From: Planctomycetota bacterium
GTDB lineage: Bacteria; Planctomycetota; Phycisphaerae; Phycisphaerales; UBA5793
Assembly: GCA_963205185.1 (NCBI GenBank)
Contig: CAUJHZ010000044.1
Coordinates: 23,640 to 87,639, forward strand
Direction of reading: 5' to 3'
Length of the DNA stretch: 64,000 bases
The notes below the pieces were generated by a model. It was not told the DNA's origin. It was given only the letters and a program-made list of their open reading frames with translations, and searched no databases. Below are positions 3,764 to 54,778 of the stretch, in pieces (position 1 is the first letter of the stretch; each line of letters starts with the position of its first letter). The position numbers and the translations under genes are program-made.

Positions 3764-4075
3764 GGGAGGGTCTTCGCCGACACACCGGCCCTTGCGCCGA
3801 CGGCTGCAAGACCCGCCCGCCCAAACCCCGTGCTCACGCCAATCCGAGCCCCGACCGTGAGGGAGGGTCTTCGCCGACACACCGGCAAAGGGCACCCGCC
3901 CAAACCCCGTGCTCACGCGAGGGGCTCGGTTTCAATCGTCACTCGCAAGTCGCGCCAGTCCGAGCCCCGACCGTGAGGGAGGGCCTTCGCCGACACACCG
4001 GCCCGTGCGCCGACGGCTGCAAGACCCGCCCGCGCAAACCCCGTGCTCACGCATGGGGCTCGGTTTCATTCCTCA
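3746..4075. repeat. Three tandem/nested palindromic (REP- or MITE-like) elements
   Basis: A 43-nt unit tccgagccccgaccgtgagggaggg(t/c)cttcgccgacacaccgg occurs at 3746, 3843 and 3959. Each is followed by cccgcc..caaaccccgtgctcacgc. In copies 2 and 3, ggggctcggtttca follows, which is the inverted complement of the 5' end. Confidence 0.8.
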
Positions 4076-4079
4076 TCGC

Positions 4080-5348: not shown

Positions 5349-5459
5349 GCGATTTCCTTGTTCGTGATCCTCAACGCGGCGCGGCGGCGCTTGAGCGTGT
5401 ATTGTTCCTTCAAGATCGACCGGGGGAAGCCGGGAACACCAGTATTGTTGACCGCCCAA

Positions 5460-15344: not shown

Positions 15345-15553
15345 GCCGCGGCGAAGCGCCGAGAGAGGTGAGAGGAGACGGGAGAGCTGGAGAGCCGAAC
15401 TGGCTTGCTGCCTCGGCGCCTCGATGCCTTTCCCTAATGCCAAGTGCCTAATGCCTCGCCGCGATGCCTCGATGCCTCGATGCCTCGATGCCTTTCCCTA
15501 GTGCCTAGTGCCTAGCGCCTAATGCCTAATGCCAAGTGCCTAATGCCTCTCCA
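15345..15553 (-). repeat. 3' module of cassette locus 1: AGGCAY heptamer array plus a pyrimidine-rich tail
   Basis: Read on the gene strand there are about 20 tandem 7-nt units (taggcac/taggcat/gaggcat...), then ctctcacctctctcggcgcttcgccg. It is homologous to 25719..25853 and 40888..41129. Confidence 0.85.
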
Positions 15554-16933
15554 CTACTCGAACTCCCAAACCACCAACTGGCTGATGGCGCACTCGTTCT
15601 GGACGACAGCTTGGAAGAGGATGGTCTGGCCGCGGGCGACGAGGGGGACGGGGCGGGTGATGGAGGCAACGCCGTTGGCGTCGGCGACGGCGGTGCCGAT
15701 GACCGTCGGCTGATCGAGTTGCAGGGCATTCTGCTGCAGGTCGCAGCCGGGGATGCGCGTGCCGCCGCCGTGGCGGGAGTAGAGGAAGACAACCCGCGCG
15801 CCGGGCGTCACGCCAGTCACGGTGATCGTATTGGCGACTCCCGCCGTGCCCGGCGTGGGTGTGGACAGTTCCAATGTCGGGTAGACCGGCGACATCAGAA
15901 ACGCTGTGGAAGTTCCTGGATGATCGACGAAGTAGCCCGTTCCTGAGATCTGGCCCGCATCGTTGATGTCCCATGCAAACTCCGTGCGCCATCGACATTT
16001 CGCCGGCAGCAGGTCGTCGAGTTTGCGTATACCTCGTGCGGGAGCCCAGATGAAGCCGACATTGCGCATTCCCTCGCGCGTCGCCCGGCCAACGACATGG
16101 CCATGCCGATTGATCGCGTATCCAAGGGTACCGACAGTCCCTGGCGGCTTGCCGAGGTCGTACATGCGGCCGCGGAACCAGATGAATGCGAATCGACGTT
16201 CCGAGTAGAAGTCAACATCGGAGCTGCCCACGACGTAGCCTGCGTTGTTTAGGCCGCTTGCGAACGCCTGGCCAACATCTCCCGCGCGGAGCGTTCCCAG
16301 ATCCGACATTTCGCCGTTGTACCAGGTCACGGCCCGCCACCCGTGGTAAGCGGCGCTCCACGCCTGTCCGACGATCAAGCCATCCTCATTGATATCCCGG
16401 GCTTCACTTCCGTTGCCTTCGAAGTCGCCCAGATCAATCATCGCGCCGTTTGTCCAGCAGAATGCTCGACGATCTCGCACGCCTGGAATCAGCTCCGACC
16501 ATCCAACGACTTGCCCGTTGTTCGAGATCTCATTGGCTTCGACCCAGTCACCACCCAGTGACCCGATGTCCTCCATCTGGCCATCGCGCCAGAGAAAGCC
16601 GCGGCTGTTGAATCCAGTTCCGCCAAGCGGATTCGACCAACCAGTGACCCAGTCGTTGTCATTTACAGCAAACGCCTGGCTATCGGTGCCTCCCAACGTG
16701 CTCAGATCGATAGGTTCCGTTTCGATCCACAGCGTTGCATGAAAGACGTTCTCCGGGAGAAAGGCGCCGCCTACTACATGGCCATGCTCATTAATTCCGT
16801 AGCCGGCGCTATCTGATCCACCAAGGGACGGCAGAGCGAAGAAGGCGTACTCGGGCGGCTGCTGAGCACATACACCGCCCGCGCGGAACGCAAGCAACAC
16901 TGAGCCGGCGACGAGAAACATTCGATGTCCCAT
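15554..16933 (-). CDS. Secreted HAF-repeat protein with a type-A conserved C-terminal domain (paralog 1)
   Basis: Repeats of ..AF.W..G.M.DLG.LGG..S.A..IN..GQVVG. ATG 16933 is preceded by GGAGG and gives a signal peptide (MGHRMFLVAGSVLLAFRAGGVCAQQ). The C-terminus is ..TPGARVVFLYSRHGGGTRIPGCDLQQNALQLDQPTVIG..ECAISQLVVWEFE. Confidence 0.85.
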   Translation of the reverse strand: MGHRMFLVAGSVLLAFRAGGVCAQQPPEYAFFALPSLGGSDSAGYGINEHGHVVGGAFLPENVFHATLWIETEPIDLSTLGGTDSQAFAVNDNDWVTGWSNPLGGTGFNSRGFLWRDGQMEDIGSLGGDWVEANEISNNGQVVGWSELIPGVRDRRAFCWTNGAMIDLGDFEGNGSEARDINEDGLIVGQAWSAAYHGWRAVTWYNGEMSDLGTLRAGDVGQAFASGLNNAGYVVGSSDVDFYSERRFAFIWFRGRMYDLGKPPGTVGTLGYAINRHGHVVGRATREGMRNVGFIWAPARGIRKLDDLLPAKCRWRTEFAWDINDAGQISGTGYFVDHPGTSTAFLMSPVYPTLELSTPTPGTAGVANTITVTGVTPGARVVFLYSRHGGGTRIPGCDLQQNALQLDQPTVIGTAVADANGVASITRPVPLVARGQTILFQAVVQNECAISQLVVWEFE

Positions 16934-17004
16934 GATGGAACCTCCAATCGGACTTCGATGAAAGCGCCGGCGCATGCTCTAGCACTCGCCGGCGAGAACA
17001 AGAG

Positions 17005-19620
17005 TCACTGACACTGAGGACATGCCGTACCATGAGGTGTGAAGTCGCTGATGAAATACTCGTCGCTCACGTCATCATGGAACTCGTCAAAACACTTCGT
17101 CAGCAATCGAGTCCGGTATTCCTCACACACCCCATTGGCGAGAAACGTCGCGGTGTCGTAGATGAAGCTCGGCTGCGGCTGCATCCAGGTCTGTCCATAG
17201 CACGCCACGGTGAAACCGGCACTACTCAGTGCCTCGAGGACCGCCGCCATGCCGAAGGACTCGTTCTGGCCGAATTGCGCCACGCGCCAACTCGTGACGA
17301 AGTCATCCCAGGACATGCCGGGAGGATCGTTGCAGCCGTTGTCCTTGTGGAACTTGCTGAATCTGAGCAAGTTGTTGGTGTACCAGTCACTGCCATTGTC
17401 AACCTTGGGCCTCCACTCCAAGGCGACTGCGAGATTCGGCGGAGTCCACGGAGGCGGGTCGAATGGGCTGATACCCTTGAGCCGATGTGCTGCCGAAACG
17501 GCGTCATCGGGATAGTCCCAGATGGTGTGCATGTCGAAGTACATCTGGCGACCATTCACCCAGTCGGATACCTCCGAAACGAGATACCGGTGTGGGTTGT
17601 CATTCTCATATCCGTCATTGACGGCCGTTTGGCTCACCGCAGCTGAGATCATGCGCAGGGGCCGACCCGCGAGAGCCGAGCCCTCCAGCGTCGCCCACAT
17701 CTGCGCATCAAGCCAATCGAGAATTGTGGCGTTCGCCAGTTCATAGCAGGCCTGATTCTGTATTTGGCCGAACGAGAGAGGTTCGCCACAACTACCGCCG
17801 AGTTCTCCGGTACGGAAGTAGTACTGGCCGGCTCCACCAAAAGCCTCGTTGCCGAACTGCACCCAGTCGATGCAGCGCGCGTACTTATAGCCGAACTCCC
17901 GCAAGTCGCCGAGAATCAAGTCTCGCTGTGCTGTCGTCGTTGGCAAGAAGTCAAACTGCTCGCTCTCTGACCCTTCCAGCGTCGATCGCATCCAGACCAC
18001 GATCTCACGCTGCCAGTCGTCGCCGCGGGCCCAGCGCTCGATGTCTGTACGGAAGCTACATTCATCCATCTGCGGATCGAGAATCTCGTTGAGCACGTAC
18101 TCGCCTTCCGGCCAGGAGTCATTGGGCAGCGCGAGCAGGTGAAGAGCAAGGCGGACCGCCTGAGTGTGAGGGATGTCGTGGGCGGCGCTATCAGAGTACC
18201 CGGCCGCATGCAGACCGACGCGCATGCCCACGTACGTATCTTCATCCACCTCGATCGACTCAGCCCAATCGATGAGCCAGTTCCCGTTCGTGTCGTCTTC
18301 GGCGCCGGTCGCGATCTCGTACACATCTGATTCGTGGTCGTTGTCCACGTCATACGGCACGAGTTTGAAGGCCACCCAGTCGCCGCCGCTGCCGAGTTGG
18401 CCCACCCCGACGATTTCGCCGGCATCGTTGATATCGGTACAGCGCATGTTGATCATGTTGCTCGGCAGGCCGAGGCTCATCGACGTCAGGTCGATCTGCT
18501 CGCCCGTGCCGGATGCAACGCTCGTCGAAACCCAGAGATACTTGTCGCCGACGATCTCGGGGTTCGCCTGATCGTTGATCGCTTCTGGAATGAAGACTGG
18601 CGAGGCGGCCAGGCTCACGCCCGTCCACTCGTCGCCGATCTCGTCGTAGTACCAGTGGATCGTGTCACTGATCGAGTCGCTGGTGAGCAGGCCGCCGATG
18701 ATCACGCCATCGTCATTGACGTCGACGGCGAAGCCGACATCCGATCCGGTGATGCCTGTGAGGTCTTCGACCTGCCATCCTCCACTGTAGTACCAGACCA
18801 CCGCCTGATACCTCGAACTGGCGTCCTGGCGTTGGCCGACGGCAAGACTCCCTAACGGCGCGGTGTTGAGCGTGATGCCCACTGCGTTGGTTCCGCTGCC
18901 GTTTGGAAGCGCGGGAAGCGGAACAGGTTGATTTGCACTATCCCACCAGCCGACGGGAGTGCCGTTCACCGATGTTCCCACGACAACGCCCTGGTTGTTG
19001 ATGTCCTTGGCATAGCCGTCGTTGGTGCCGATCTGTGTGAGCGTGCCGGCATAGGTGCTGGTCAGCGCGAGGAAGAATGCCTTGGGGCCGGAATTGCTGC
19101 GCGTGCCGCAGATCTCCAGTTCATCGTTGATGCCCCGCAGACCGGCGTTGTCGAGAATGATGTCACCCGAGCCGTCTTCGAGCGGTCCCTGCCAGCCGTC
19201 TGTGTACATCTCGTCGTACCAGATGTAGCCGTAGTTGTTGCTGCCGTTGTTCATCGTGGCGACGACGACCCCATCATTGTTCATGTGCACGCCCGGGTCG
19301 GGCAGAAGCGTGCAACCACTGGGCAGCGGGATGCGCACGAGCACGAACGGCTTGAAGATGGGCGCGGTCATCGAGGCAACCTCTTCCGCCGCGCTGGTCG
19401 CCGAACCGGCGGCAGCCGCGGCTTCCACCCCGACTGTCGGTGCGGCCCACCTTCCCTCTGAACTGGCCGCCGAGTTGGCGTGCCACACGGTTTCACCCGC
19501 AGCCGACAGCAGGATCGTACTGGCTCCGAGCAGCGAGATGGTCGAGAATCCACCGTGAACGCGCTTGAAAGGACGTCTCAGAGGACGCCTCCTTCGAAGA
19601 AGGCGGCGACGAATGGCCAT
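17005..19620 (-). CDS. Large secreted protein: HAF-like repeats, a possible (beta/alpha)8 hydrolase-like region and a Cys-rich C-terminal module
   Basis: I chose ATG 19620 (MAIRRRLLRRRRPL..FSTISLLGASTILLSAAG signal) because the region upstream is a conserved non-coding leader. The N-terminal half has ..INN.GVVVG.. repeats, the middle has ..WVQFGNEAFGG.., and the end is ..LSSAGFTVAC..VSDEYFISDFTPHGTACPQCQ. Confidence 0.75.
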   Translation of the reverse strand: MAIRRRLLRRRRPLRRPFKRVHGGFSTISLLGASTILLSAAGETVWHANSAASSEGRWAAPTVGVEAAAAAGSATSAAEEVASMTAPIFKPFVLVRIPLPSGCTLLPDPGVHMNNDGVVVATMNNGSNNYGYIWYDEMYTDGWQGPLEDGSGDIILDNAGLRGINDELEICGTRSNSGPKAFFLALTSTYAGTLTQIGTNDGYAKDINNQGVVVGTSVNGTPVGWWDSANQPVPLPALPNGSGTNAVGITLNTAPLGSLAVGQRQDASSRYQAVVWYYSGGWQVEDLTGITGSDVGFAVDVNDDGVIIGGLLTSDSISDTIHWYYDEIGDEWTGVSLAASPVFIPEAINDQANPEIVGDKYLWVSTSVASGTGEQIDLTSMSLGLPSNMINMRCTDINDAGEIVGVGQLGSGGDWVAFKLVPYDVDNDHESDVYEIATGAEDDTNGNWLIDWAESIEVDEDTYVGMRVGLHAAGYSDSAAHDIPHTQAVRLALHLLALPNDSWPEGEYVLNEILDPQMDECSFRTDIERWARGDDWQREIVVWMRSTLEGSESEQFDFLPTTTAQRDLILGDLREFGYKYARCIDWVQFGNEAFGGAGQYYFRTGELGGSCGEPLSFGQIQNQACYELANATILDWLDAQMWATLEGSALAGRPLRMISAAVSQTAVNDGYENDNPHRYLVSEVSDWVNGRQMYFDMHTIWDYPDDAVSAAHRLKGISPFDPPPWTPPNLAVALEWRPKVDNGSDWYTNNLLRFSKFHKDNGCNDPPGMSWDDFVTSWRVAQFGQNESFGMAAVLEALSSAGFTVACYGQTWMQPQPSFIYDTATFLANGVCEEYRTRLLTKCFDEFHDDVSDEYFISDFTPHGTACPQCQ

Positions 19621-19700
19621 CGACAAGACGGCGACTCCATCTATCGAAACACCGACTGAGATTGGCGGCCGTAGCCTCTGCAACGGACGGCCCCCCAGAC

Positions 19701-20015
19701 CAATGGACGACAGCACTTCGAGACGCTGCTCCAACCTACCAGCAGACGGCCGCATCGTCGAGAGCAAAGCGATAAAGCGACACTCGATCAGGGTGGATTT
19801 CTTGCGCCGAACACGCTGTGGTTGAGTGAAAATCTGCGCACCAGCGCGCATCTCCCGCACCTTCTCGCCTTGAAATCACCGCGCGGCGAGCCACAATCGA
19901 GGCGTCGGTGGCGGACATGACGAATTGCGAACCCCGGACGTGCCGGGTACAGGGCGCCGCGAGGCGCCGGGAGATTGATTGTGAAGGTGGTGGTGACGCG
20001 AACGCTGGCTGGTGG
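19701..20015 (-). repeat. 5' module of cassette locus 1 (conserved leader, promoter region and a 35-nt copy of the 5' end of the 2-hydroxyacid dehydrogenase gene)
   Basis: It is the reverse complement of 23628..23941 with only a handful of mismatches. Positions 19981..20015 (gtgaaggtggtggtgacgcgaacgctggctggtgg) are identical to the first 35 nt of CDS 22676..23662. Confidence 0.85.
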
Positions 20016-23662: not shown

Positions 23663-23985
23663 AATCCATCTCCCGGCGCCTCGCGGCGCCCTGTACCCGG
23701 CACGTCCGGGGTTCGATTTCATCATGTCCGCTACCGACGCCTCGATTGTGGCTCGCCGCCCGGTGATTTCAAGGCGAGAAGGTGCGGGAGATGCGCGCTG
23801 GTGCGCAGATTCTCACTCAACCACAGCGTGCTCGGCACGAGAAATCCACCCTGATCGAGTGTCGCTTTGGCGCTTTGTTCTCGACGATGCGGTCGTCTGC
23901 TGGTACGTTGGAGCAGCGTCTCGCAGTGCTGCCCTCCATTGCCGGCGCGGCCGCTGGTCGCAATCGTGCCGCAAGAAAGAAGGCC
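23628..23985 (+). repeat. 5' module of cassette locus 2 (promoter region plus conserved non-coding leader)
   Basis: 23628..23941 is an inverted copy of 19701..20015. 23792..23985 is a direct copy of 38955..39148, with about 10 differences by manual alignment. Confidence 0.85.
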
Positions 23986-24300
23986 ATGCCAGACAATCGT
24001 ACCGGTCCCGTTTTCCTGCCCAACGCGCTTGCCAGTGCTGGCTTCGCAACCGCTTGTCACAGCGCGCTCCAGTTCGACTCCGGAACGGTAGACGATCCTA
24101 GTCGACACCAGGTTGAGGGCTTGCGTGCAACGCAACTGCTTGATCCTGAGACCATGACGGAACGCGATTATCTGTTCACGCCGGTTTCCGACTGGTACCT
24201 CGACCAGTACGCCGCGCCGGCGCACAAGATCCCAAACTTCGTGGTGCATCCTAGCGCCTGTGATCCTGAGCACACGTGTCCGGAGTGTCCGCAGCAGTGA
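23986..24300 (+). CDS. Small Cys-rich protein (104 aa), cassette gene 1 (short form)
   Basis: The ATG is preceded by AGAAAGAAGG. Compared with the paralog 39149..39463, 11 codons differ only synonymously and 8 change the amino acid. It shares ALxSAGFxxAC..VSDxY..CPxCxQ with the C-terminus of the 871-aa protein 17005..19620. Confidence 0.6.
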   Translation: MPDNRTGPVFLPNALASAGFATACHSALQFDSGTVDDPSRHQVEGLRATQLLDPETMTERDYLFTPVSDWYLDQYAAPAHKIPNFVVHPSACDPEHTCPECPQQ

Positions 24301-24356
24301 TGTTGAGATCTCGGTGGGAGGGCCGCGCCCTCCCACCGTTCGACTGACGAGGTGAC

Positions 24357-25718
24357 ATGATGAACCCGACCCACCGAATCTTCGTTTTGGCAGTGGTCTT
24401 GTGTGGCGATTGTGCCTTCAGCGAGGACTTCAGTTATGCGGTCTTCAACCTACCGGGACTAAACCCAGATGAACTGCATGGCGCATCGTACGCGGTCAAC
24501 GAGAGAGGCTACGTTTGTGGTTCGAGTGTGTCTCTGATCGGCGCTGTTCATGGCGCGATTTGGGATCCCGCCGGTAACGTGGTTGATCTGGGTGCGATCG
24601 GAGGCAACAGCAGCGAGGCGCACGATCTAAATGACCTTGGCCAGGCAGTGGGCTGGACTGGGCGCGGCCCGGACGATGGCAGGGCGTTTCTGTGGCAAGA
24701 TGGGGAGATGGTTGACCTTGGAACACTTGGTGGCCAATTCAGCTCAGCCCGAGGAGTGAACAATTCTAAGCAGATTGTCGGGAAGTCGGGGACCAGCGGT
24801 GGATCAAGCAGTGCGTTCCTATGGGAGGATGGAGAGATGCGAGCTCTGCCAGGACTCGCTGAAGGACAGTCGACTCAGGCGTATGCCATCAATGATGCCA
24901 GCCGCGTCGTCGGGTACTCGTGGCCACCGCAATCCGGTCACATCGCCGTTTACTGGGAGAACGAACAAGTATTTGAATTGCCCCGATGGATTGGACCCAG
25001 CGATGCGTTCGCCGTAAATGATCTCGGCCATATCGTCGGACAAGCCGAATACTCGGCGTCCAAATATCACGCGGCCGCTTGGGTGGACGGTCAAATCCAC
25101 GACCTCCACCGCGCCAGCCTCGGGCGGGACAGTTCTGCCTGGGGTATCAACAATGTCGGCCAGGTCGTCGGGTGGCTCGGCGACGGCCGAACGCTGTTTG
25201 TCCGCCAGGCATTTCTATGGGAACAGCAGGGCGGCATGCGAACGCTCGACAGCATGGTGCCGCCTCGGTTGCGCAAGAACTGGTCTCTCACCGTGGCGCG
25301 CGACATCAACGAAGCGGGACAGATCGCCGCGTATGGCATTGAGGCCGGTCATCCCCTGATCCTCGTACCGTTCCTTGTGAGTCCGGTCCATCCGACGATG
25401 GAGATGGCGGCGCCTTCACCGGGTATCGCGGGTACGAACAATACCATCAGCATCACCGGCGCGACCCCCGGCGCGCGCGTCGTTTTTCTCTACTCCCGCC
25501 ACGGCGGCGGCACCCGCATCCCCGGCTGCGACCTCCAGCAGAACGCGCTGCAATTAGATCAGCCGACGGTGATCGGTACCGCCATCGCCGACTCCAACGG
25601 CGTTGCATCAATCACCCGCAACGTCCCGCTCATCGTCCGCGGCCAGACCATCCTCTTCCAAGCCCTCGACCAGAACGAGTGCGCGATCAGCCAGTTGGTG
25701 GTGCATGAGTTTGAGTGA
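24357..25718 (+). CDS. Secreted HAF-repeat protein with a type-A C-terminal domain (paralog 2)
   Basis: It has a signal peptide (MMNPTHRIFVLAVVLCGDCAFS) and repeats such as RAFLWQDGEMVDLGTLGG..GVNNSKQIVG. It ends ..TPGARVVFLYSRHGGGTRIPGCDLQQNALQLDQPTVIG..ECAISQLVVHEFE. Confidence 0.85.
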   Translation: MMNPTHRIFVLAVVLCGDCAFSEDFSYAVFNLPGLNPDELHGASYAVNERGYVCGSSVSLIGAVHGAIWDPAGNVVDLGAIGGNSSEAHDLNDLGQAVGWTGRGPDDGRAFLWQDGEMVDLGTLGGQFSSARGVNNSKQIVGKSGTSGGSSSAFLWEDGEMRALPGLAEGQSTQAYAINDASRVVGYSWPPQSGHIAVYWENEQVFELPRWIGPSDAFAVNDLGHIVGQAEYSASKYHAAAWVDGQIHDLHRASLGRDSSAWGINNVGQVVGWLGDGRTLFVRQAFLWEQQGGMRTLDSMVPPRLRKNWSLTVARDINEAGQIAAYGIEAGHPLILVPFLVSPVHPTMEMAAPSPGIAGTNNTISITGATPGARVVFLYSRHGGGTRIPGCDLQQNALQLDQPTVIGTAIADSNGVASITRNVPLIVRGQTILFQALDQNECAISQLVVHEFE

Positions 25719-25853
25719 AAGATGCAAGGGACCAGGCACTAGGCACTTGGCAATCGGGGAAGGCATCGAGGCAGCAAGGGCGAGCTCTCCTTTCTCCTTT
25801 CTCCTTTCTCTTCTCACTCTTCTCGGCGCTGCGCCGCCACCTCTCTCGGCGCT
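25719..25853 (+). repeat. 3' module of cassette locus 2: short AGGCAY heptamer array plus a pyrimidine-rich tail
   Basis: aagatgcaagggaccaggcactaggcacttggcaat..ggcatcgaggcagcaaggg.. then ctcctttctcctttctcctttctcttctcac and ctcggcgctgcgccgcc units. This copy has about 8 heptamers. Confidence 0.85.
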
Positions 25854-26486
25854 TCACCGTGGTGCGATCGCTTCGCGGCGCATCTGGTCGATGGCGGCGC
25901 GGGCCCGGGATTCGTCGTTGAGGCGCTGGGGGGCGTCGATGCGGATGATGCCGGCTTTGGCGCGGATGTCGATGCCGCTCGGATCGACGCCCACAAGCAC
26001 GGCCTCGTCGATCTCGACGCCGTTGAAGTGGCGGCTCATGGCCATGAGATCGGCGCGATGCTCCGTGTTCATCCAGCGGCACAGGGCCGGCTCGACTTGC
26101 GCGAGGGGATTGGGCTCCATGAGATCCTCACCGTCGAACACCTGGCCGCGCCACTTGGCTGCGTCGATGTTCATGCGGTAGAAGGCGATGTCGGTCGGCT
26201 TGCCGTGGTAGATGCGCCAGCGATCGGCCTCGTGGCTTTCGCTCTCGACGGCCTCGACGGTGGCGAGCAGTTCGAGCACATCGGGCACATCGGAGGGGAT
26301 GAAGAGGACGGTGGAGTCGGCGGTGAGGATGTCAGCGCTGCCGCAGATGATCGGCTCGCCGCGCGGACCGAGGACGTAGCGCACGCCCGAGTAGAAGCCG
26401 TCGCGGTCGAGCGTGGCGACGGTGTGGCGGCGGAGGAAGTCGCGCGCATCTGAGGCGGTGCAGGTTGGTTCTTCGCCGGCGGTCAT
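25854..26486 (-). CDS. DUF2470 / HugZ-like (pyridoxamine 5'-phosphate oxidase-related) protein
   Basis: The N-terminal half resembles the PNPOx-like split barrel (..ARDFLRRHTVATL..G..YVLG..GEPII). The C-terminal ..MNTEHRADLMAMSRHFNGVEIDEAVLVGVDPSGIDI.. resembles DUF2470. The call rests on motifs only. Confidence 0.65.
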   Translation of the reverse strand: MTAGEEPTCTASDARDFLRRHTVATLDRDGFYSGVRYVLGPRGEPIICGSADILTADSTVLFIPSDVPDVLELLATVEAVESESHEADRWRIYHGKPTDIAFYRMNIDAAKWRGQVFDGEDLMEPNPLAQVEPALCRWMNTEHRADLMAMSRHFNGVEIDEAVLVGVDPSGIDIRAKAGIIRIDAPQRLNDESRARAAIDQMRREAIAPR

Positions 26487-33486: not shown

Positions 33487-33687
33487 ATGACGCGAACCTG
33501 TTCACCGATCTGCGCGGCGACATTGAGGAGGACCCGCGCCGGCACCGCCACCGCCAATGCAAACGGCATCGCCACGCTCACGCGCTTGATCCCCGGCAAC
33601 GCCTCCAACCTCGGCGAGGTGCTCATCCAAGCCGTCGATGCCGACAACTGCCAGATCAGCCAACTTGTCGTGCATCAGTTCGAATGA
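33487..33687 (+). pseudogene. Orphan fragment of the type-A C-terminal domain
   Basis: The translation ends ..ANANGIATLTRLIPGNASNLGEVLIQAVDADNCQISQLVVHQFE. This parallels ..ADANGVASITRPVPLVARGQTILFQAVVQNECAISQLVVWEFE in the HAF proteins. There is an in-frame stop 24 nt upstream and no signal peptide or N-terminal domain. Confidence 0.45.
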
Positions 33688-35093: not shown

Positions 35094-35224
35094 GTTCACT
35101 CCTTCTCGAGGTTCAGCTCGCCAGGCGCCACCCATGTCGGGCGGGAAAGGCGAGTATACGGGAAAAACCTGAGAGGAGGCAAAGTCCCCGGTCTTGTTGG
35201 AGCGGCGGCTGGCAGGCTCTCGAG

Positions 35225-35257
35225 AAAAAAAGACCTCACCTCCGCGGGGAGGTGAGG
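35225..35257 (-). terminator. Rho-independent terminator of 35302..36282
   Basis: On the minus strand: cctcacctcc-ccgc-ggaggtgagg (10-bp stem) followed by tcttttttt. Confidence 0.75.
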
Positions 35258-35301
35258 CCCTTGATCTCAGGAGATCAGATGATCACTAGCAGTTGGACTG
35301 C

Positions 35302-36282
35302 TTACGGAATCTGTCCGACGGTGCTGGCCTCGCAGGGGCTGGCGATGGTGACCAGCTGGAGGTAGCCGCCGCACGCGGCGTTGTTGGCATTGCCATTCAC
35401 GCTGCCCGTGCCGCTGCCGGTGGGAACCGTATTGACCAGGCGGATGTTCTGGGTGCCCAGGCCGAGTTGCGTGCCCTGGCAGGGACCGCTGGGAACGACG
35501 AACGAACCGGTGTTGCCGGCAAAGACGATGCCCTGCTGCTTGTTGGGCTGGGCGCCATCCCAGGCGACGTTGACGGTGCCGGGGCAGGTGCCGGTGACGG
35601 TGCAGGTGTATCCGCCGCCGCCCTGGCCGAGGCCGGTGAGCGACATGTCGTCGTAGTAGGTGGAGGTGCCGAGGGTGTAGAGATCGACGTTGGCGATCTC
35701 AATGGCGCCGCCGCGAATGAAGAGCTGACCCGTTGACACTTCGACGTTGTTGTAGTACGTCGTGATGGTGTCGTTGTCGACGTCGAGTTCGCAGCGGATT
35801 TCCGCCCACTGATCAAACGCGATGGACGGGAAGTTGGTCTCGGTGCGGAAGTCGTCGGCCACAGTGCCGGGGCCGCCGCCTGCGTCGCCTTCGAAGTCAA
35901 ACTGCAGTTCGATGCACCACTGGTAGGGGCCGCCGTGGGCATATTCGTTCTGCACGATGAAGTAGGTGTCAGAGACGAACTGGGAGACGGGGATGTAGAC
36001 CCACGCCGTGAAGGTGCCGGCGCCGGAGGTCAGGCCCGTGAAGGGATGGACGGCGTCGTCGGCGCCTTCGCTCAGGATCGATTTGGTGCCGCCGTGCGCA
36101 TGCGCAGTGCTGCACGAGCCGCAGACAGACTGAGTGTCATCCCAGCCGGTCCAGCCGCCCACGTTGTACAGCACCTGTCCGTCGGTGTAGGACTCGAAGT
36201 CATCGCTCCAGTCCTGCGCGAAGGCAGCGCTGCCCAGGGACATCGCCGCGGCGAGCCCGAATCCGGTGAGTTTGCTCTTCAT
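35302..36282 (-). CDS. Secreted protein: LamG/jelly-roll-like N-terminal domain plus a type-B conserved C-terminal domain
   Basis: Signal MKSKLTGFGLAAAMSLGSAAFAQ, then DWSDDFESYTDGQ.. The C-terminus is ..CPGTVNVAWDGAQPNKQQGIVFAGNTGS..PCQGTQLGLGTQ..ACGGYLQLVTIASPCEASTVGQIP. AAAGGAG precedes the ATG. Confidence 0.8.
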   Translation of the reverse strand: MKSKLTGFGLAAAMSLGSAAFAQDWSDDFESYTDGQVLYNVGGWTGWDDTQSVCGSCSTAHAHGGTKSILSEGADDAVHPFTGLTSGAGTFTAWVYIPVSQFVSDTYFIVQNEYAHGGPYQWCIELQFDFEGDAGGGPGTVADDFRTETNFPSIAFDQWAEIRCELDVDNDTITTYYNNVEVSTGQLFIRGGAIEIANVDLYTLGTSTYYDDMSLTGLGQGGGGYTCTVTGTCPGTVNVAWDGAQPNKQQGIVFAGNTGSFVVPSGPCQGTQLGLGTQNIRLVNTVPTGSGTGSVNGNANNAACGGYLQLVTIASPCEASTVGQIP

Positions 36283-38954: not shown

Positions 38955-39148
38955 TGCGCGCTGGTGCGCAGATTCTCACTCAACCACAGCGTGTTCGGCA
39001 CGAGAAATCCACCCTGATCGAGTGTCGCTTTATCGCTTTGTTCTCGACGATGCGGTCGTCTGCTGGTAGGTTGGAGCAGCGTCTCGCAGTGCTGTCGTCC
39101 ATTGCCGGCGCGACTGGTGGTCGCAATCGTGCCGCAAGAGAGAAGGCC
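38955..39148 (+). repeat. 5' module of cassette locus 3 (conserved non-coding leader)
   Basis: It is a direct copy of 23792..23985. It shares tgcgcgctggtgcgcagattctcactcaaccacagcgtg..ccattg with all three loci. Confidence 0.85.
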
Positions 39149-39463
39149 ATGCCAAACAATCGTACCAGTCCCGTTTTCCTGCCCAACGCGCTTGCCAGTG
39201 CTGGCTTCGCAACCGCTTGTCACAGCGCGCTCCAGTTCGACTCCGGAACGGTGGACGATCCTAGTCGACACCAGGTTGAGGGCTTGCGTGCGACGCAACT
39301 GATCGATCCTGAGAACATGACGGGGCGCCAGTATCTGTTCACTCCAGTCTCCGACTGGTACCTCGACCAGTACGCCGCGCCGGCGCACAAGATCGCTAAC
39401 TTCGTCGTGCATCCGAACGCGTGCGATCCCGAGCACACCTGTCCGGAGTGTCCGCAGCAGTGA
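39149..39463 (+). CDS. Small Cys-rich protein (104 aa), cassette gene 1 (short form), paralog of 23986..24300
   Basis: The ATG is preceded by AGAGAGAAGG. It ends ..NFVVHPNACDPEHTCPECPQQ. It is the only credible part of the 413-aa ORF 38222..39463. Confidence 0.6.
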   Translation: MPNNRTSPVFLPNALASAGFATACHSALQFDSGTVDDPSRHQVEGLRATQLIDPENMTGRQYLFTPVSDWYLDQYAAPAHKIANFVVHPNACDPEHTCPECPQQ

Positions 39464-39522
39464 TTTGGCCGCAGGTGGGCGGAGCGCCTCTCCGCCCACC
39501 ACTTCATTTGGAGATGCCATAC

Positions 39523-40887
39523 ATGCCACGCATCGCTACATTGCCTTTGTGCTTGACCGGCGTAATGACCATCTTCGGACCCGCCGGTGCCGGCGCCCAG
39601 CAGTACCCATATGCGGTTTTCGATCTGCAGGTCCTCAACCCGGAGGCCCCGCACTCGGCCACTCGGGCAATTGCTCAAAACGGGTGCGTCGTTGGCGGCT
39701 CCGACACCGGCCCCGAGTTGCACGCAGTCTTGTGGCCGGCGTTCGGCGGTGCGGTAGATCTCGGCACGCTTTCCGGCGATGACTCCGAGGCGCGAGGCGT
39801 GAACGGCGCTGTGGATATCGTTGGGTCGAGTGGAGACACATTCGGGCCACGTCGCGCATTCCTCTATCGCGACGGTCACATGATCGACCTCGGCACTCTT
39901 GGAGGCGTCGTCAGCGTCGCGAATGACATCAACGAATCCAGTCAGATCGTCGGGTACTCAACGACCGAGGTCACAACTTTGGCCTTCGTCTGGGAAGGTG
40001 GGGCCATGCGGGCCCTCCGTGGACTCGACGAGAGTCAGTCAACGCAGGCGTTTGCCATCAATAATGCCGGCCGTGTTGTCGGGTACTCGTGGCCACCGCA
40101 ATCCGGTCACATCGCCGTTTACTGGGAGAACGAACAGATTGTTGAATTGCCGCGATGGATCGGTCCCAGTGACGCGTTCGCCGTGAATGACCTTGGCCAC
40201 ATCGTTGGGCAAGCCGAATACTCGGCGTCCAAGTATCACGCGGCCGCGTGGGTGGACGGCCAGATCTACGACCTCCACCGCGCCAGCCTCGGGCGCGACA
40301 GTTCCGCCTGGGGCATCAATAATGTCGGCCAGGTCGTCGGGTGGCTCGGTGACGGTCGCACGTTGTTCGTTCGCCAGGCATTTCTCTGGGAACAGCAAGG
40401 CGGCATGCGAACGCTCGACAGCTTGGCGCCACCTCGCTTGCGGAAGAACTGGTCGATCACCATGGCGCACGACATCAACGATGCGGGACAGATCGCCGCG
40501 TATGGCGTCGAGGCTGGTCATCCCCTGATCCTCGTGCCGTTCCTTGTGAGTCCAGTCAATCCGACGATGGAGATGGCGGCGCCATCACCGGGTGTCGCGG
40601 GCACGAGCAACACCATCAGTATCACCGGCGCGACCCCCGGCGCGCGCGTCGTTTTTCTCTACTCCCGCCGCGGCGGTGGCACGCGCATCCCCGGTTGCGA
40701 CTTGCAGCAGAACGCGCTGCAACTCGATCAGCCGACGGTGATTGGCAGCGCCATCGCCGACGCCAACGGCGTGGCCACCATCACCCGCAACGTCCCCCTC
40801 ATCGCCCGCGGCCAGACCATCCTCTTCCAGGCCGTGGTGCAGAACGAGTGCGCCATCAGTCAGTTGGTGGTGCATGAGTTTGAGTGA
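39523..40887 (+). CDS. Secreted HAF-repeat protein with a type-A C-terminal domain (paralog 3)
   Basis: ATG 39523 lies 9-10 nt after GGAG, and ATG 39514 is the alternative. Signal MPRIATLPLCLTGVMTIFGPAGAGAQQ. It has HAF repeats and ends ..ECAISQLVVHEFE. Confidence 0.85.
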   Translation: MPRIATLPLCLTGVMTIFGPAGAGAQQYPYAVFDLQVLNPEAPHSATRAIAQNGCVVGGSDTGPELHAVLWPAFGGAVDLGTLSGDDSEARGVNGAVDIVGSSGDTFGPRRAFLYRDGHMIDLGTLGGVVSVANDINESSQIVGYSTTEVTTLAFVWEGGAMRALRGLDESQSTQAFAINNAGRVVGYSWPPQSGHIAVYWENEQIVELPRWIGPSDAFAVNDLGHIVGQAEYSASKYHAAAWVDGQIYDLHRASLGRDSSAWGINNVGQVVGWLGDGRTLFVRQAFLWEQQGGMRTLDSLAPPRLRKNWSITMAHDINDAGQIAAYGVEAGHPLILVPFLVSPVNPTMEMAAPSPGVAGTSNTISITGATPGARVVFLYSRRGGGTRIPGCDLQQNALQLDQPTVIGSAIADANGVATITRNVPLIARGQTILFQAVVQNECAISQLVVHEFE

Positions 40888-41129
40888 AAGATGCAAGGGA
40901 CCAGGCACTTGGCTCGAGGCACTAGGCACTAGGCATTAGGCATTAGGGAAAGGCATCGAGGCATCAAGGCATCGCGGAGAAGCATCAGGCACTTGGCACT
41001 TGGCAATGGGGAGGGCAGCGAGGCAGCAAGGGCGAGGTCTCCGTTCTCCTTTCTCTTCTCACCTCTCTCGGCGCTGCGCCGCCGCCAATCTCGGCGCTGC
41101 GCCGCCGCCAATCTCGGCGCTTCGCCGTG
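40888..41129 (+). repeat. 3' module of cassette locus 3: long AGGCAY heptamer array, a pyrimidine-rich tail and a duplicated 23-nt unit
   Basis: About 18 units (caggcac ttggctc gaggcac taggcac taggcat taggcat ...), then ctccgttctcctttctcttctcac, then ctcggcgctgcgccgccgccaat repeated about 2.5 times. Confidence 0.85.
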
Positions 41130-44100
41130 TTACTTCAGCGTGCTGAGGTATTCGATGAGGTCGCGGATCTGGCGGCGGGTGAGGTGGGGGGCGACGGGGA
41201 GCATGGCCGAGGGTGGATCGAAGCCTTCGGCGAGCATCGCGTTGGGGTCGAGCAGCGATTGAAGCAGTTGCGCGCGTGTGAGGCGCGAGGCGACGCCGGC
41301 GAGATCGGGCCCGGCTTCGCCGCCCTGGCCATTGATGGCGTGGCAGCGCATGCACGACACGGCCGAACCGCCCGTGAACACTTCGCGGCCGGCGTCGGCA
41401 CTGCCGCCCTGCAGCAGAGCCTGGGGCATTGGGCCCGAGAGATCGACGTCGGGCGGCGCTGCGATGTCGTCGAACCGGTGTGCCGCGAGTTGCGGCGCTT
41501 TGCTGGCGGCGGCGGCTTCGATGACTTCCAGTTGCAGTTCGGCGGGCAGCGTCCCTGACTGCAGGCGCTTGGCCAGGCCGACCAGCGCGCTCAGCGCATC
41601 GGGGTGGTCCATCGCGGTCAGCCCGCGAATCGCCGCCTGCTGTTCGATGATGCTCGCATGATCAAGCGCTTCGATGAAGGCGACGCGGGCGCGATCGGGG
41701 TCGATGCGCGCGATCACATCGCGGGCCATGGCGCGGAGCGCGGGCCGGTCGCAGGCGAGCGCTGCGGCCAGCGCGGCGTCGAACTTCTCATCGCGGTCGC
41801 GGCTGAGTTGGAGCAGCGCCGCAGCGCGATCGACATCGGGCAGCGACGCGTTGAGCACGGCGTTGAGGTTGGCGGTGTTGTCGAGTTGGATGCCGTATTG
41901 CCCGGCGAGCGCGCGGGCGGCGCTGGCGACGGGCGGGGCGGCGTGTTCGATCAGGCCGGGTAGCTTGCGCTCGAGCACGGGCAGGATCGACGCCGGGTCG
42001 CGCTGCGCCGGGTCGACCGGGCGATAGAAGCCGTTCACGCGATCGCGCGGCGAGGGGTCCATCCAGTCGGCCAGGGCGCGGATGGCTTCGAGGCGCATCG
42101 ACATGGGCGCTTGGGGGTTGCGCGCCAGGTCGGCAAGCACGGCGGCGTGGCGCGCCTGCCCGAGGCGCAGGTTGGCGTTGATGGCGCGGCGAAGCAGAGG
42201 CTCGTTGCCCTGCACCTGCGCGCCGGCGCCGATGGGCCGCTCGATGGCGCCGTCGGGAAGAATCCAGCCGACCGCGACGTGATCTTCACCGCCGCCTTCG
42301 CGATGGCGCACTTCGACGGCGTAGCGCCGCCCGGCGACGAGTTGAACCGGTTGCGAGGTCTGCGAGGCCATGGCGTCCCATTGATCGCGTCCGACCCAGC
42401 CGTCGATGGACGCGATGCGCTGGAGATGTGCCGGGCTTTCATCGGTACTGAGATAGAGAATGGAATCGTCATCGCTGGCGATCTGAAAGCGATACGCGCC
42501 GGTCTGCGGGGCGATGATCGTGCCGGTGATGCGGGTGATGAAATCATCGGCGATGCTCTCGCGGCCGGCGAAGATGTCTGTTTCATCCGACTCATCGGGT
42601 TTCACGGCGGAGAAGTCGGCGGCGGCGAGCTGGTCGATCGGCTTTCCAGCCGCGGCACGGAGCACGCGCGAAGAAGCGCTGCGGTACCAGGCGCGGGTGA
42701 AGCGGTGAGGCGACCGGGCCGCTTCGCTCACGTCGAGCATTTCCGCGGAAGCCGGCTTGAGCAGGCCCGCCAGCGCCGGCGTGGCGGCGTCGATGGGCAG
42801 GTCATTGATGGCGCGGGCGGCCTCGGTGACGAGTGATTCATCCTTGTCGGCAAGGAAGTCGGCGATGCGCGGGTCGCCGGCGCGGCGGAGCACGAGCACA
42901 GCCGCGAGGCGCACGGCGGGCGACTCGTCGGCGACGTAGTTCATCACTGCGTCGAGGTCATCCATCCAGTACAGCGCCATGACGCCCGCGTGGCGGAGAT
43001 ACACATCGCGGTTGTCGTTGGTCCAGAGCAGCGTGATGAGATCATCGATGGCGGGCTTGTATTGCAATCGCCCGAGCGCCATCGCGGCGAAGTATTTCAC
43101 ACGCAGCGAATCATCGAGCAGCGCGTTGCGCAGCGCTTCGCCGGCCGGCGTGAACTTCACATCGCCGAGCACGCTGGCGACCTGGGCGCGCACTTCGGCG
43201 TCCGGATCATCGAGCAGATCGGCAACGCGCGCGAGAGGATAATCCGGGTCGGATTGCGGCAGATCGCAACGCCGGGCGATGATGCCCAGGCCCCAGATCG
43301 CGTGCAGGCGCGCGAGTTGATGGCGGCTCTGATGGGCGATTTCGCTGAGGCGCGGGGCGCTTGACAGCCCGCGATCGGCCAGGGCGAACTGGGCTCGAAG
43401 GCGCACGCGCATGTCCGGGTGCTCGAGCAGTGCGACGAGATGCTCATCGCTGCGCTGCTTGAAGCCTTCGCGAAAGAGGCGCTGCACCTCGGCCGCGCGC
43501 GACGCAGCGAGCGTCTGCGGATTCCAGACGGTGTAGATCCGGCCCTCGCCGTTGCCGACCCAGCCGGCGCCCCAGTCGCTGATGTACATCTTCCCGTCGT
43601 AGCCGAAATCGACATCGGTGGCGAGCACGTGCGAAACGAACGTGTGCTGATCGACCATTCGAAAGCCGGCGCCGTCGGGCTCGACGGCGAACGAGACGAT
43701 CTGGCTGCTGTCGTTGCCGCCGCGGAAATCGCAAAGGAAGAAGTGTCCGTCGTAGCGTTGTGGCAGACCGACGCCGGGGTAGTAGACGAACCCGGATGGG
43801 CCGCTGGTGACGTGCGCGACGGGCGGCAGCGTCCACGCGGGCTGGCCCTCGTGGCGCAGTTCCCAGATGCCTTCCTGGCACCACGGGCCGCGCAGGTTGT
43901 CGCCTTCGAGGGTCTGGTAGTTCATGTTCCAGCCGGTTTCGCCGCCGGGCACGAGGTAGACGAGCCGGGCGCGGTCGCCGGCGTCGGAGTTGTTGTCTCC
44001 GGTGAAGAGGTTGCCGAATTGATCGAACGCGAGTTCCTGCGGATTGCGCAGACTGTGATGAACGACTTCGAGGTTGGCGCCGTCGGGTTCGCAGCGGAAG

Positions 44101-53136: not shown

Positions 53137-53326
53137 GTCGCGACCAGCATGGTAGTCTGGAGTATTTTGGCTCACCAGCCGGAGATCGGAATGATTCGCG
53201 CTGTTTCCCGGTTTACCCGTTGACAACAGTGGCCCTTAGAGGTTACGCTGTGCGCGGTGCGGCGCGTCAGGTTCGCCACGCGGGCGGATCGTCTGCCGCA
53301 TCGTCTTTCCTGGAGGATTGTGCGTG

Positions 53327-54778
53327 ATGAACTGCATGAACGTTGTGGCGCGCCGGCGGCTCGCCGGATTTGCCTGCCTGGCGGTGGTGGGTGCTTCGAC
53401 CGCCACATTTGCCCAGTATAACGCCCACAAGGTGCGCCTGATGAGCCAACTCACGCCACAGCAGATGGGCGGCTCGGGCGGCAACGACTGCTGGGGCTAC
53501 ACGAGCCCGTCGGGACGCGAGTACGGCATCATCGGCAACTACACCAGCACGGCCTTCGTCGAGGTTACCGACCCCGTCAATCCCGTCATCGTGCACATCG
53601 AGCCGCACAGCCAGAGCACGACCGAGGACATGAAGGTCTACGGCCACTACGCCTACTGCATCGGCGACTACTTCAACCTCCAGGTGTTCGATCTGAGCCA
53701 GATCGACAGCGGCGTGGTCACCAAGGTCAACGAGCGGCCCTACCGGAGCCACAATTTCGCGCTCAACGAAGAGAGCGGCTTTGCGTACATGACGGCGTCG
53801 AGCCAGGGCAGCGGCATCGTGGCGCTCGACTTGAGCGACCCGACGACGCCGACCGTTGCGGGCTCGACGAACCCCACCGGCGGGCACGTGCACGACGCGC
53901 AGGTCGTCACCTACCACGATGGCCCCTATGCGGGTAAGGAGATCGCCTTCTGCCCGAGCGGGTACTGGCGCTTTGACATCATCGACGTAACGGACAAGTC
54001 GAACATGGTGCTGCTCGGCTCGGATGTGTATCCCGGCTTGAACTACTGCCACCAGGGATGGCTCAGCGCCGACCGCCGGTACTTCTATCTCAACGATGAA
54101 CTCGATGAACTCAACGGCTACACGCCCACGACGCGCACGCTGGTCTACGACGTGTCGGATCTGAGCAACCCGACGCTCGTTTCGGAGTTCACCTCCGGCA
54201 TGACGGCGACGGATCACAACCTGTTCGTCAAGGACGGGTTCATCTACGAAGCAAACTACTCCAGCGGCTTCCAACTCTTCGACGCCCGCAATGATCCGGA
54301 GAATCCGGTGCGCGTCGGCTGGTTCGACACCTATCCCGAGAATGATGCGCCCGGCTACGCCCACGGCGCGTGGACGGCGTGGCCGTTCTTCGAATCGGGC
54401 ACGGTGATCGTCAACGACCGCGATCGCGGACTGTTCGTCGTCGATGTTTCCGAGGCGATCGGCGCGAGAATGGACCTGGCGAGCACGACGCTCACTGCCG
54501 GTCAGAGCGCGACGCTCTCGGTCCAGCGGGCCACCCCGGGCCAGCGCGTGCATTTCATCTACAGCCTGGTGGGCGGCGATGCGTGGACGCGCGTCAACGC
54601 GCTGAACGTGTATCTCAACCTGGCCAGTCCCGTGCTCATCGGCAGCGCCACGGCCGATGGCAACGGCGAGGCATCGCTCATGCGCAACGTCCCGCAGGGG
54701 ACGTCGGGGCTCACGCTGTGGCTCCAGGCGGCCGAGAATGGAAACACTTCCAATGTGCTGGAGGAGACGATTCAGTAA
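53327..54778 (+). CDS. Secreted LVIVD-repeat / choice-of-anchor-B-like beta-propeller protein with a Cys-free variant of the conserved C-terminal domain
   Basis: A signal peptide (..LAGFACLAVVGASTATFAQ), then ..GGNDCWGYTSPSGREYGIIG..AFVEVTDPVNP.. The C-terminus is ..ATPGQRVHFIYSLVGG..LNLASPVLIGSATADGNGEASLMRNVP..LWLQAAENGNTSNVLEETIQ. The start may be ATG 53327, GTG 53324 or TTG 53318. Confidence 0.78.
   Translation: MNCMNVVARRRLAGFACLAVVGASTATFAQYNAHKVRLMSQLTPQQMGGSGGNDCWGYTSPSGREYGIIGNYTSTAFVEVTDPVNPVIVHIEPHSQSTTEDMKVYGHYAYCIGDYFNLQVFDLSQIDSGVVTKVNERPYRSHNFALNEESGFAYMTASSQGSGIVALDLSDPTTPTVAGSTNPTGGHVHDAQVVTYHDGPYAGKEIAFCPSGYWRFDIIDVTDKSNMVLLGSDVYPGLNYCHQGWLSADRRYFYLNDELDELNGYTPTTRTLVYDVSDLSNPTLVSEFTSGMTATDHNLFVKDGFIYEANYSSGFQLFDARNDPENPVRVGWFDTYPENDAPGYAHGAWTAWPFFESGTVIVNDRDRGLFVVDVSEAIGARMDLASTTLTAGQSATLSVQRATPGQRVHFIYSLVGGDAWTRVNALNVYLNLASPVLIGSATADGNGEASLMRNVPQGTSGLTLWLQAAENGNTSNVLEETIQ

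Follow-up and report, generated by a model that had tools for sequence, protein, structure and literature searches.

Heptanucleotides are the most abundant class of long simple sequence repeats (SSRs) and have been ascribed to polymerase slippage, as the work of Mrazek (2007) is cited in PMC4679880. TAACTGA direct repeats have been described in Beggiatoaceae, Cyanobacteria and Bacteroidetes, including sites in ribosomal-protein operons, and binding by S1, Csp or CsrA has been proposed for them (MacGregor, 2015; PMC4679880). The GGGAATC and GGGGA(C/T)T heptamers of Xanthomonas and Nostoc, respectively, are intergenic, transcribed and often arranged as inverted pairs; they vary between close relatives at a kept location, have no identified function and lie with the G-rich strand as the coding strand, and the regions that hold them were more stable, not less, than control regions (Rehm, 2015; PMC4692102). 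TTAGGCA (FpVNTR5) and AATAGGC (FpVNTR1) are intergenic variable-number tandem repeat (VNTR) units of Flavobacterium psychrophilum (PMC4501049), and deletion of heptamer repeats altered reporter expression in Nostoc and Escherichia coli constructs (bioRxiv 10.1101/2022.06.06.494920). Here we analyse arrays of the heptamer RGGCAYT that follow three HAF-repeat genes in a 64,000-nt stretch of DNA ('the window') from a Planctomycetota bacterium of the order Phycisphaerales (assembly GCA_963205185.1, contig CAUJHZ010000044.1, positions 23,640 to 87,639 of the forward strand).

As in the case of the repeats described by Rehm (2015), the RGGCAYT arrays are 7-nt tandem repeats, almost exclusively intergenic, frequently found as inverted pairs and neighbours to genes of every functional class, and among close relatives they keep their place but differ in length and sequence. 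The position rule of those repeats, by which the G-rich strand lies near the 5'-side open reading frame (ORF) and is the coding strand past its stop codon, also holds for the window arrays and for the survey of other genomes described below. In contrast to them, RGGCAYT has only a GG run and no predicted G-quadruplex, and the Phycisphaerales arrays are tied to one paralogous gene family and embedded in a conserved composite flank. With the TAACTGA repeats our arrays have in common that one heptamer recurs intergenically in distant phyla without a visible transfer mechanism, that some sites lie in ribosomal-protein operons and that strains differ by indels in 7-nt steps; however, the unit differs, and most sets of TAACTGA are forward-oriented and immediately precede a start codon, whereas the HAF arrays lie past stop codons. 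FpVNTR5 and FpVNTR1 have the same unit (TTAGGCA, ATAGGCA), are intergenic and form part of a VNTR set for typing isolates, although their host is a low-GC member of the Bacteroidota, no link to a gene family is reported and they are described only as typing markers. When the literature was searched for the heptamer by name, the Flavobacterium VNTR table was the sole result, and a search for HAF proteins returned nothing relevant.

Overall, the arrays display an excess of tandem 7-nt units, a non-coding site, change by whole units, occurrence in many genomes and the position rule. Since every testable feature of the class is present, we assign them to the known intergenic heptamer SSRs; the HAF arrays belong to this already described class and are not a new regulatory RNA. 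Our preferred explanation, to which we give a probability of roughly 55%, is that they are slippage-prone intergenic heptanucleotide SSRs in the 3' flank of secreted HAF paralogs, spread by conversion and having no specific partner.

Three ORFs in the window encode HAF-repeat proteins (TIGR02913, E 1e-39 to 1e-48; also DUF3466). Their nearest database relatives are annotated as proteins of Phycisphaerales metagenome-assembled genomes (MAGs), and an exact-protein look-up of HAF2 gave no record. Tandem Repeats Finder (TRF) detected period-7 arrays behind all three genes, each sense-oriented and beginning 5-15 nt past the HAF stop codon. The units are 7 nt long, interspersed with blocks of the 8-nt variant AGGCATCG, and follow the consensus T-R-G-G-C-A-n-T, in which all positions vary except the GG used as the anchor; GGC is present in 65 of the 87 anchored units and GGA in the other 22. 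Nearly half of the AGGCAY occurrences in the 64 kb (24 of 51) sit inside the ~330 nt that the arrays cover. The sequence GGCAYNNGGCAY occurs 13 times against 1.37 expected, a count equalled in none of 100 shuffles, and 11 of these occurrences lie in the three HAF flanks. All six window occurrences of the CTCGGCGCTKCGCCG core, for which 0.24 were expected, are likewise in HAF flanks. L1 and L3, the arrays behind HAF genes 1 and 3, have stop codons in all six frames, and L2, behind gene 2, has four stop-free frames, but the region is just 147 nt long. The window arrays are non-coding.

A common order is seen 3' of each HAF stop codon: a short leader, the heptamer array, a pyrimidine tract and one to three copies of a unit with the CTCGGCGCTKCGCCG core. 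The components are as follows.

39421..40887, forward strand: HAF-repeat gene 3 (TIGR02913, E 2.6e-42, and DUF3466), stop codon TGA at 40885-40887
40888..40902, forward strand: leader aagatgcaagggacc from the gene 3 stop to the array, identical to the gene 2 leader
40903..41036, forward strand: heptamer array L3, about 19 units of RGGCAYT including the 8-nt AGGCATCR, ending in GGGGAGGGCAGCGAGGCAGCAAGGGCGAG (TRF rows 40903-41005)
41038..41069, forward strand: pyrimidine tract tctccgttctcctttctcttctcacctctctc, with one G
41066..41127, forward strand: 23-nt unit tctcggcgctgcgccgccgccaa in 2.7 copies (TRF score 117, 97% matches)
24357..25718, forward strand: HAF-repeat gene 2, stop codon TGA (database protein P0001, 452 aa)
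25719..25733, forward strand: leader aagatgcaagggacc after the gene 2 stop
25734..25784, forward strand: heptamer array L2, about 8 units (TRF)
25785..25821, forward strand: pyrimidine tract without G, containing TCTCCTT in 3.6 copies (25786-25810, TRF)
25822..25859, forward strand: CTCGGCGCTKCGCCG motif in two copies, the second carrying a single mismatch
15554..16975, reverse strand: HAF-repeat gene 1, stop codon TAG at 15556-15554 (database protein P0072, 459 aa, would put the start at 16933)
15403..15548, reverse strand: heptamer array L1, about 21 units, four of them a block of AGGCATCG (TRF rows 15433-15548)
15361..15394, reverse strand: pyrimidine-rich tract ctctccagctctcccgtctcctctcacctctctc, with two G
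15349..15363, reverse strand: single copy CTCGGCGCTTCGCCG, 11 nt 5' of the ATG of a co-directional amidohydrolase/dihydroorotase-like gene

The counts of about 21, 8 and 19 units for L1, L2 and L3 come from a unit-by-unit reading of the sequence and lie close to the 20, 8 and 18 first given in the original prediction. The 7-nt arrays, the leader, the CT-rich tract and the 23-nt unit that it had described were all found where it had placed them. The leader of gene 1 is tggag. For gene 3 the ORF starts at 39421, and database protein P0002 (454 aa) implies 39523 instead. The tracts that follow the arrays are 32-40 nt long with at most ~3 G each, and that of L3 may be rut-like, judging from its composition. 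Every copy of tctcggcgctgcgccgccgccaa in L3 holds the small GC hairpin motif CTCGGCGCTKCGCCG, the last one (41113-41127) in the conserved CTT loop form, and in L2 the second CTCGGCGCTKCGCCG copy contains the stop codon of a convergent gene (25854-26486, reverse strand). The L2 pyrimidine tract is itself a heptamer repeat at 25786-25810 (TCTCCTT in 3.6 copies), the complement of which is a tandem AAGGAGA. Its CUCCUUU may resemble the 3' tail of 16S rRNA (the anti-Shine-Dalgarno region); the window contains no 16S gene.

The modules had been described as otherwise near-identical, which proved too broad: the likeness is confined to the last ~75 codons and the flank, and the HAF1 protein shares just 44-47% identity with HAF2 and HAF3. 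At four-fold degenerate sites HAF1 and HAF3 have an identity of 0.2-0.5, at saturation, over the first 360 codons, rising to ~0.75 over the last 75, while for HAF2 and HAF3 it is 0-0.44 over the first 160-200 codons and 0.65-0.89 thereafter. Homology then extends across the flank and stops at the last hairpin motif. This mosaic is the signature of gene conversion anchored at the 3' end and not of recent whole-module duplication. The shared flank thus goes back to recent exchange, and the differences in unit number arose afterwards. The HAF2 and HAF3 loci also have a piece of the upstream gene in common, at 93.5% identity, so that their divergent N-terminal 160-200 codons are flanked by blocks of 93.5% (upstream) and 88.5% (3') identity, a pattern that looks like cassette-type diversification. 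The family is highly paralogous, with 1,867 matches and, in some MAGs, over 10 copies in a single genome.

Several other repeats accompany these genes. Repeat pairs in the window are 23792-24301 with 38955-39464, 24813-25752 with 39982-40921 and, in inverted orientation, 19701-20015 with 23941-23628. Each HAF gene is half of a repeated two-gene cassette, the partner of which is a protein of ~900 aa without a Pfam match (17005-19860 beside HAF1). The C-terminal domain of HAF (~95 aa, also without a Pfam match) additionally ends an LVIVD-repeat protein at 53318-54778, and a lone fragment of it spanning ~50 codons, which may be what is left of a gene, lies at 33532-33684. The idea that the array is tied to this domain was rejected, as no array follows either of these two copies. 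A 400-nt inverted repeat of 80% identity joins 35223-35622 (near the reverse-strand ORF 35302-36282) to 38211-37810, in the gene upstream of the HAF3 cassette. Elsewhere, a direct repeat of ~100 nt (3738-3839 and 3951-4052, 95% identity, within 3738-4079 and with weaker copies between) sits where ORFs 3243-3860 and 3909-6791 meet.

To follow the arrays beyond the window, HAF homologs were sampled without reference to the repeat, giving 11 distinct genes from at least four Phycisphaerales lineages. The trailer tctcacctctctcggcgcttcgccgcc is retained in several relatives (L121 and L186-L189), and among the fetched loci it was found only in HAF modules or in partial contigs carrying that trailer. 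At the locus of protein P0012, which is the same in three assemblies, a 21-nt indel of three units and ~12 substitutions are seen within ~100 nt of array, while the flanks differ by 1-2%. The leader and trailer of L121 recur in a metagenome contig (L125) around a different array, four TAGGCAC followed by four TGGGCAC; a metagenome scan for the module AGGCAGCAAG..CTCGGCGCTKCGCCG returned two contigs only, too few for covariation. Thus unit number and unit type change, but slowly, and part of the unit change may be due to conversion rather than slippage. The original prediction had read the differences in copy number as active slippage and proposed looking for repeat-length polymorphism in related strains. 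Change by whole units is supported by the paralogs (about 8, 19 and 21 units) and by the 21-nt indel at the P0012 locus, which varies by three units; it needs qualifying in that change is slow, a second locus (P0003) is invariant and the likeness of the modules stems largely from conversion. GGGA and GGCA units occur together in the HAF arrays of L190 and L191, and at 4360-4420 of L088 TTAGGGA heptamers run into TTAGGCA, which suggests that units of the GGGA type, as in Rehm (2015), and of the GGCA type may interconvert.

We also surveyed public genomes, one per species, with the pattern AGGCAYTWGGCAYTWGGCAYT. At least 120 stretches were found, against a chance expectation of roughly ten by a rough estimate; other genomic copies of the array, for which the original prediction had suggested a search, therefore exist. 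The matches listed come from at least eight phyla (Planctomycetota, Gemmatimonadota, Acidobacteriota, Armatimonadota, Bacteroidota, Cyanobacteria, Alphaproteobacteria and Firmicutes) and include isolate genomes of Aequorivita, Mariniflexile and Paenibacillus, and among them the Y position of the unit follows GC content. Gene context among these matches was judged from crude ORF-based gene calls, by which 92 of 95 arrays are intergenic. Those within 30 nt of a stop codon are sense-oriented in 28 cases and antisense in 13 (p 0.03). When viewed in the GGCA orientation, arrays adjoin their left neighbour, whichever its direction, in 44 cases and the right one in 19 (p 0.002). Several ORFs end in ...RH*, encoded by AGG CAC TAG from the first repeat unit (L005, L006, L080, L083, L116 and others), and at these loci the array appears to overlap or to have replaced the native stop codon. 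The genes upstream, judged from their sequences with no family search, encode QueA, TtcA, MgtE, RibF, IspD, Dcd, MiaA, ribosomal proteins and others; on the same basis no functional enrichment was seen, the genes being diverse housekeeping genes.

One of these loci is in the S10 ribosomal-protein operon of a Phycisphaerae MAG (L061, CAMTWL010000002.1), where perfect GGCACTA arrays of 5 and 14 units occupy, on the reverse strand, the rplW-rplB spacer (440-475) and the rplB-rpsS spacer (1364-1455), followed by a second, TCAGGAC-like heptamer. Since they lie inside an essential operon, they are transcribed there, which rules out strong terminators. Other phyla often have the arrays in inverted pairs, and the Gemmatimonadota pairs share flanking sequence. 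In five Gemmatimonadota and Longimicrobia MAGs (L054, L068, L082, L101 and L113) a TGCCTAG array is separated by a spacer of 60-90 nt from a GGCACTA array; the spacers hold other heptamers (CAGGACT, CAGCACT), and the flanks are nearly identical across genomes (cttctgttacta ... ctttacatcg). Such pairs suggest that the heptamer also makes up a dispersed hairpin element, which may be mobile. Polar decay of the arrays, in which degenerate units would gather on one side, was not observed, flank identity to the repeat being 0.40 on the left and 0.38 on the right.

We then considered the arrays as RNA. A scan of the window at Rfam gathering thresholds returned two tRNAs only and no match for the arrays, and a permissive scan of 40700-41300 gave nothing below E 0.7; a known RNA family was rejected on these grounds. 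The three flanks fold worse than shuffled sequences (z +1.25, +1.26 and +0.63). With G-quadruplex folding enabled in ViennaRNA no array used a quadruplex, because the RGGCAYT unit has only a GG run. Pairing of the purine-rich end of the array with the pyrimidine tract as a conserved structure was also discarded, as the folds vary by module and the flank energies are worse than those of shuffles. No sigma-70-like promoter was found in 40700-41400, the L3 flank being the only one scanned and the consensus one that does not cover Planctomycetota promoters. The same flank has two weak terminator-like matches against 0.4 expected, one of them at 41115-41127, and the conserved hairpin of L1, L2, L121 and L189 has no consistent U tract behind it. 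Two other repeat categories do not fit: a phase-variation contingency locus was rejected because the arrays begin past the stop codon instead of inside an ORF or promoter, and a gain or loss of units there leaves the HAF reading frame intact, and palindromes of the repetitive extragenic (REP), bacterial interspersed mosaic (BIME) or miniature inverted-repeat (MITE) kind because the window arrays are direct repeats only, with positive z-scores. A Dcm/Vsr context (CTWGG in the units) and Rho YC-dimer spacing were also considered and dropped.

The original prediction had compared the arrays, as a hypothesis, with protein-titrating RNAs of the CsrB/RsmZ type. Those RNAs are defined by GGA in hairpin loops, and CsrA needs GGA. 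What they share with the HAF arrays is a short G-rich motif present many times in a non-coding stretch of RNA. However, most units of the HAF arrays lack GGA, with only an occasional GGGA, and the region is unstructured; moreover, the array does not look like an independent gene and has no Rfam match. With 65 GGC units to 22 GGA, weak folds and no promoter-like site in the L3 flank, we find no support for this comparison. Nor would a dedicated HAF regulator RNA be expected behind unrelated housekeeping genes or in a ribosomal-protein operon, where the same arrays lie in other genomes. The alternatives offered in the original prediction, DNA-level binding sites or recombination hot spots, may apply. 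The sites of HutP and TRAP are UAG triplets at a short fixed spacing in mRNA, the HutP arrangement UAG-N4 having a 7-nt period. These proteins are not known outside Bacillus and its relatives, act on 3-11 repeats in the 5' leader and control antitermination, and nothing in the window data indicates such a protein.

In the explanation that we prefer, units would be gained and lost in 7-nt steps by strand slippage; the step size and the polymorphism are observed, and slippage would account for both. The site just past the stop codon would tolerate such changes because the protein cannot be altered there, and the units also carry stop codons on both strands. Conversion tracts anchored in the 3' flank and reaching variably into the gene would then spread and refresh the array among the HAF paralogs, as the observed mosaic suggests. 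The identical arrays in the ribosomal-protein operon of another genome point to an array that is probably transcribed within the HAF mRNA and is not itself a terminator. The transcript would probably end downstream, at the G-poor pyrimidine tract and small GC hairpin, which together seem more like a Rho-dependent than an intrinsic terminator; Rho is probably involved because no U tract follows the hairpin. The array most likely has no sequence-specific trans-acting partner and would serve at most as an unstructured spacer.

A number of observations weigh against this explanation. A sense-strand GGCA-type array lies 0-90 nt past the stop codon in 9 of the 11 sampled HAF genes, even though the proteins are only 44-73% identical to HAF2 and the remaining flank sequence has diverged. 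The ~110 kb of neighbouring DNA fetched with these homologs contains just two other runs, of three units each. Persistence of this kind exceeds what simple neutrality predicts, unless conversion keeps renewing the arrays. At the P0003 locus the array is identical across the three assemblies in which the P0012 array differs. Moreover, the GC content of array loci among the matches listed spans 30-74%, and in viral contigs the motif accounts for 31 stretches against 11, 4, 8 and 6 for four permuted heptamers of the same composition, controls that are a weak proxy for a motif-specific excess. Recurrence over such a range of GC, together with the viral excess, hints at motif-specific selection or a motif-specific mechanism. 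The retention behind the sampled Phycisphaerales HAF genes and the 3- to 8-fold excess over permuted controls in viral contigs are the modestly new elements of this work.

One rival explanation is a multivalent protein-binding platform. An unstructured, transcribed run of RGGCAYU in the 3' untranslated region (UTR) might recruit or titrate many copies of a protein that binds single-stranded nucleic acid with a footprint of ~7 nt, such as a cold-shock-domain, S1/OB-fold or KH protein, and thereby set the stability, termination or localisation of the HAF mRNA, a generalised form of the titration idea of the original prediction. Retention across lineages despite sequence turnover, the viral excess, the occurrence of the same unit in opposite GC backgrounds, an array RNA less structured than shuffles and the sense preference of stop-adjacent arrays in independent genomes would all agree with such a multivalent platform, as would the binding by S1, Csp or CsrA proposed for TAACTGA (MacGregor, 2015; PMC4679880) and the reporter effect of repeat deletion in Nostoc and E. 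coli (bioRxiv 10.1101/2022.06.06.494920). Against it, most units lack the GGA needed by CsrA, every unit position apart from the GG anchor varies, the neighbouring genes have no common function and Rfam gives no match. In addition, the bias of arrays towards the left neighbour regardless of gene direction points to a property of the DNA strand rather than of the transcript. Furthermore, we know of no binding partner for the array, and we regard a platform as unlikely. In a broader version, which we consider unlikely, RGGCAYT would be a cross-phylum cis element, either a platform in 7-nt register for a conserved single-strand binder (with cold-shock-domain, S1 or OB-fold proteins as candidates) or the product of a motif-specific DNA process, recruited in Phycisphaerales as a fixed component of the HAF 3' UTR together with a terminator module made up of the pyrimidine tract and hairpin.

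Two further explanations are less probable still. The array and conserved trailer might form a recombination boundary, offering homology or a fragile, slippage-prone site at which gene conversion between HAF cassettes starts; the C-terminal part would then be kept uniform and the N-terminal repeats of these secreted proteins left to diversify, much as cassettes do in surface variation. The conversion tracts do have a common 3' end in the flank and variable 5' ends, the divergent N-terminal codons of HAF2 and HAF3 lie between their two conserved blocks, the clustered substitutions and indel of the P0012 array within little-changed flanks are what a converted patch should look like, and the family is rich in paralogs. 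We nevertheless think this improbable: any conserved flank can anchor conversion, and therefore nothing shows that the array is needed, the same arrays adjoin single-copy housekeeping genes in other phyla, and heptamer regions were more stable than controls (Rehm, 2015; PMC4692102). Most doubtful of all is a role as part of the terminator or as a 3'-end protection element of the HAF mRNA, by acting as a pause or R-loop site with the G-rich strand as non-template or through pairing of the purine-rich array end with the pyrimidine tract. The array lies directly past the stop codon, in two of three cases between convergent genes, its G-rich strand is the coding strand as for related repeats (Rehm, 2015; PMC4692102), the L3 flank has more terminator-like matches than expected, both of them weak, and the minimum-energy folds of L1 and L2 pair the GGGGAAGG array end with the CU tract. 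However, these predicted pairings change between modules, fold energies are no better than those of shuffles, no hairpin is consistently followed by a U tract, and the S10 operon, through which transcription must continue, contains identical arrays.

To our knowledge, no bacterial heptamer repeat class has an established function. The HAF case is a well-defined example, in which RGGCAYT occurs in at least eight phyla, typically abutting stop codons, and has long been kept behind one expanded family of secreted proteins within a conserved flank. Should the retention be functional, the HAF modules would lend themselves to a search for the reader of a 7-nt register; should it not be, they would show gene conversion carrying and renewing a neutral repeat across a paralog family, a caution against too readily taking 3'-UTR repeats in metagenome-assembled genomes for regulatory RNAs.

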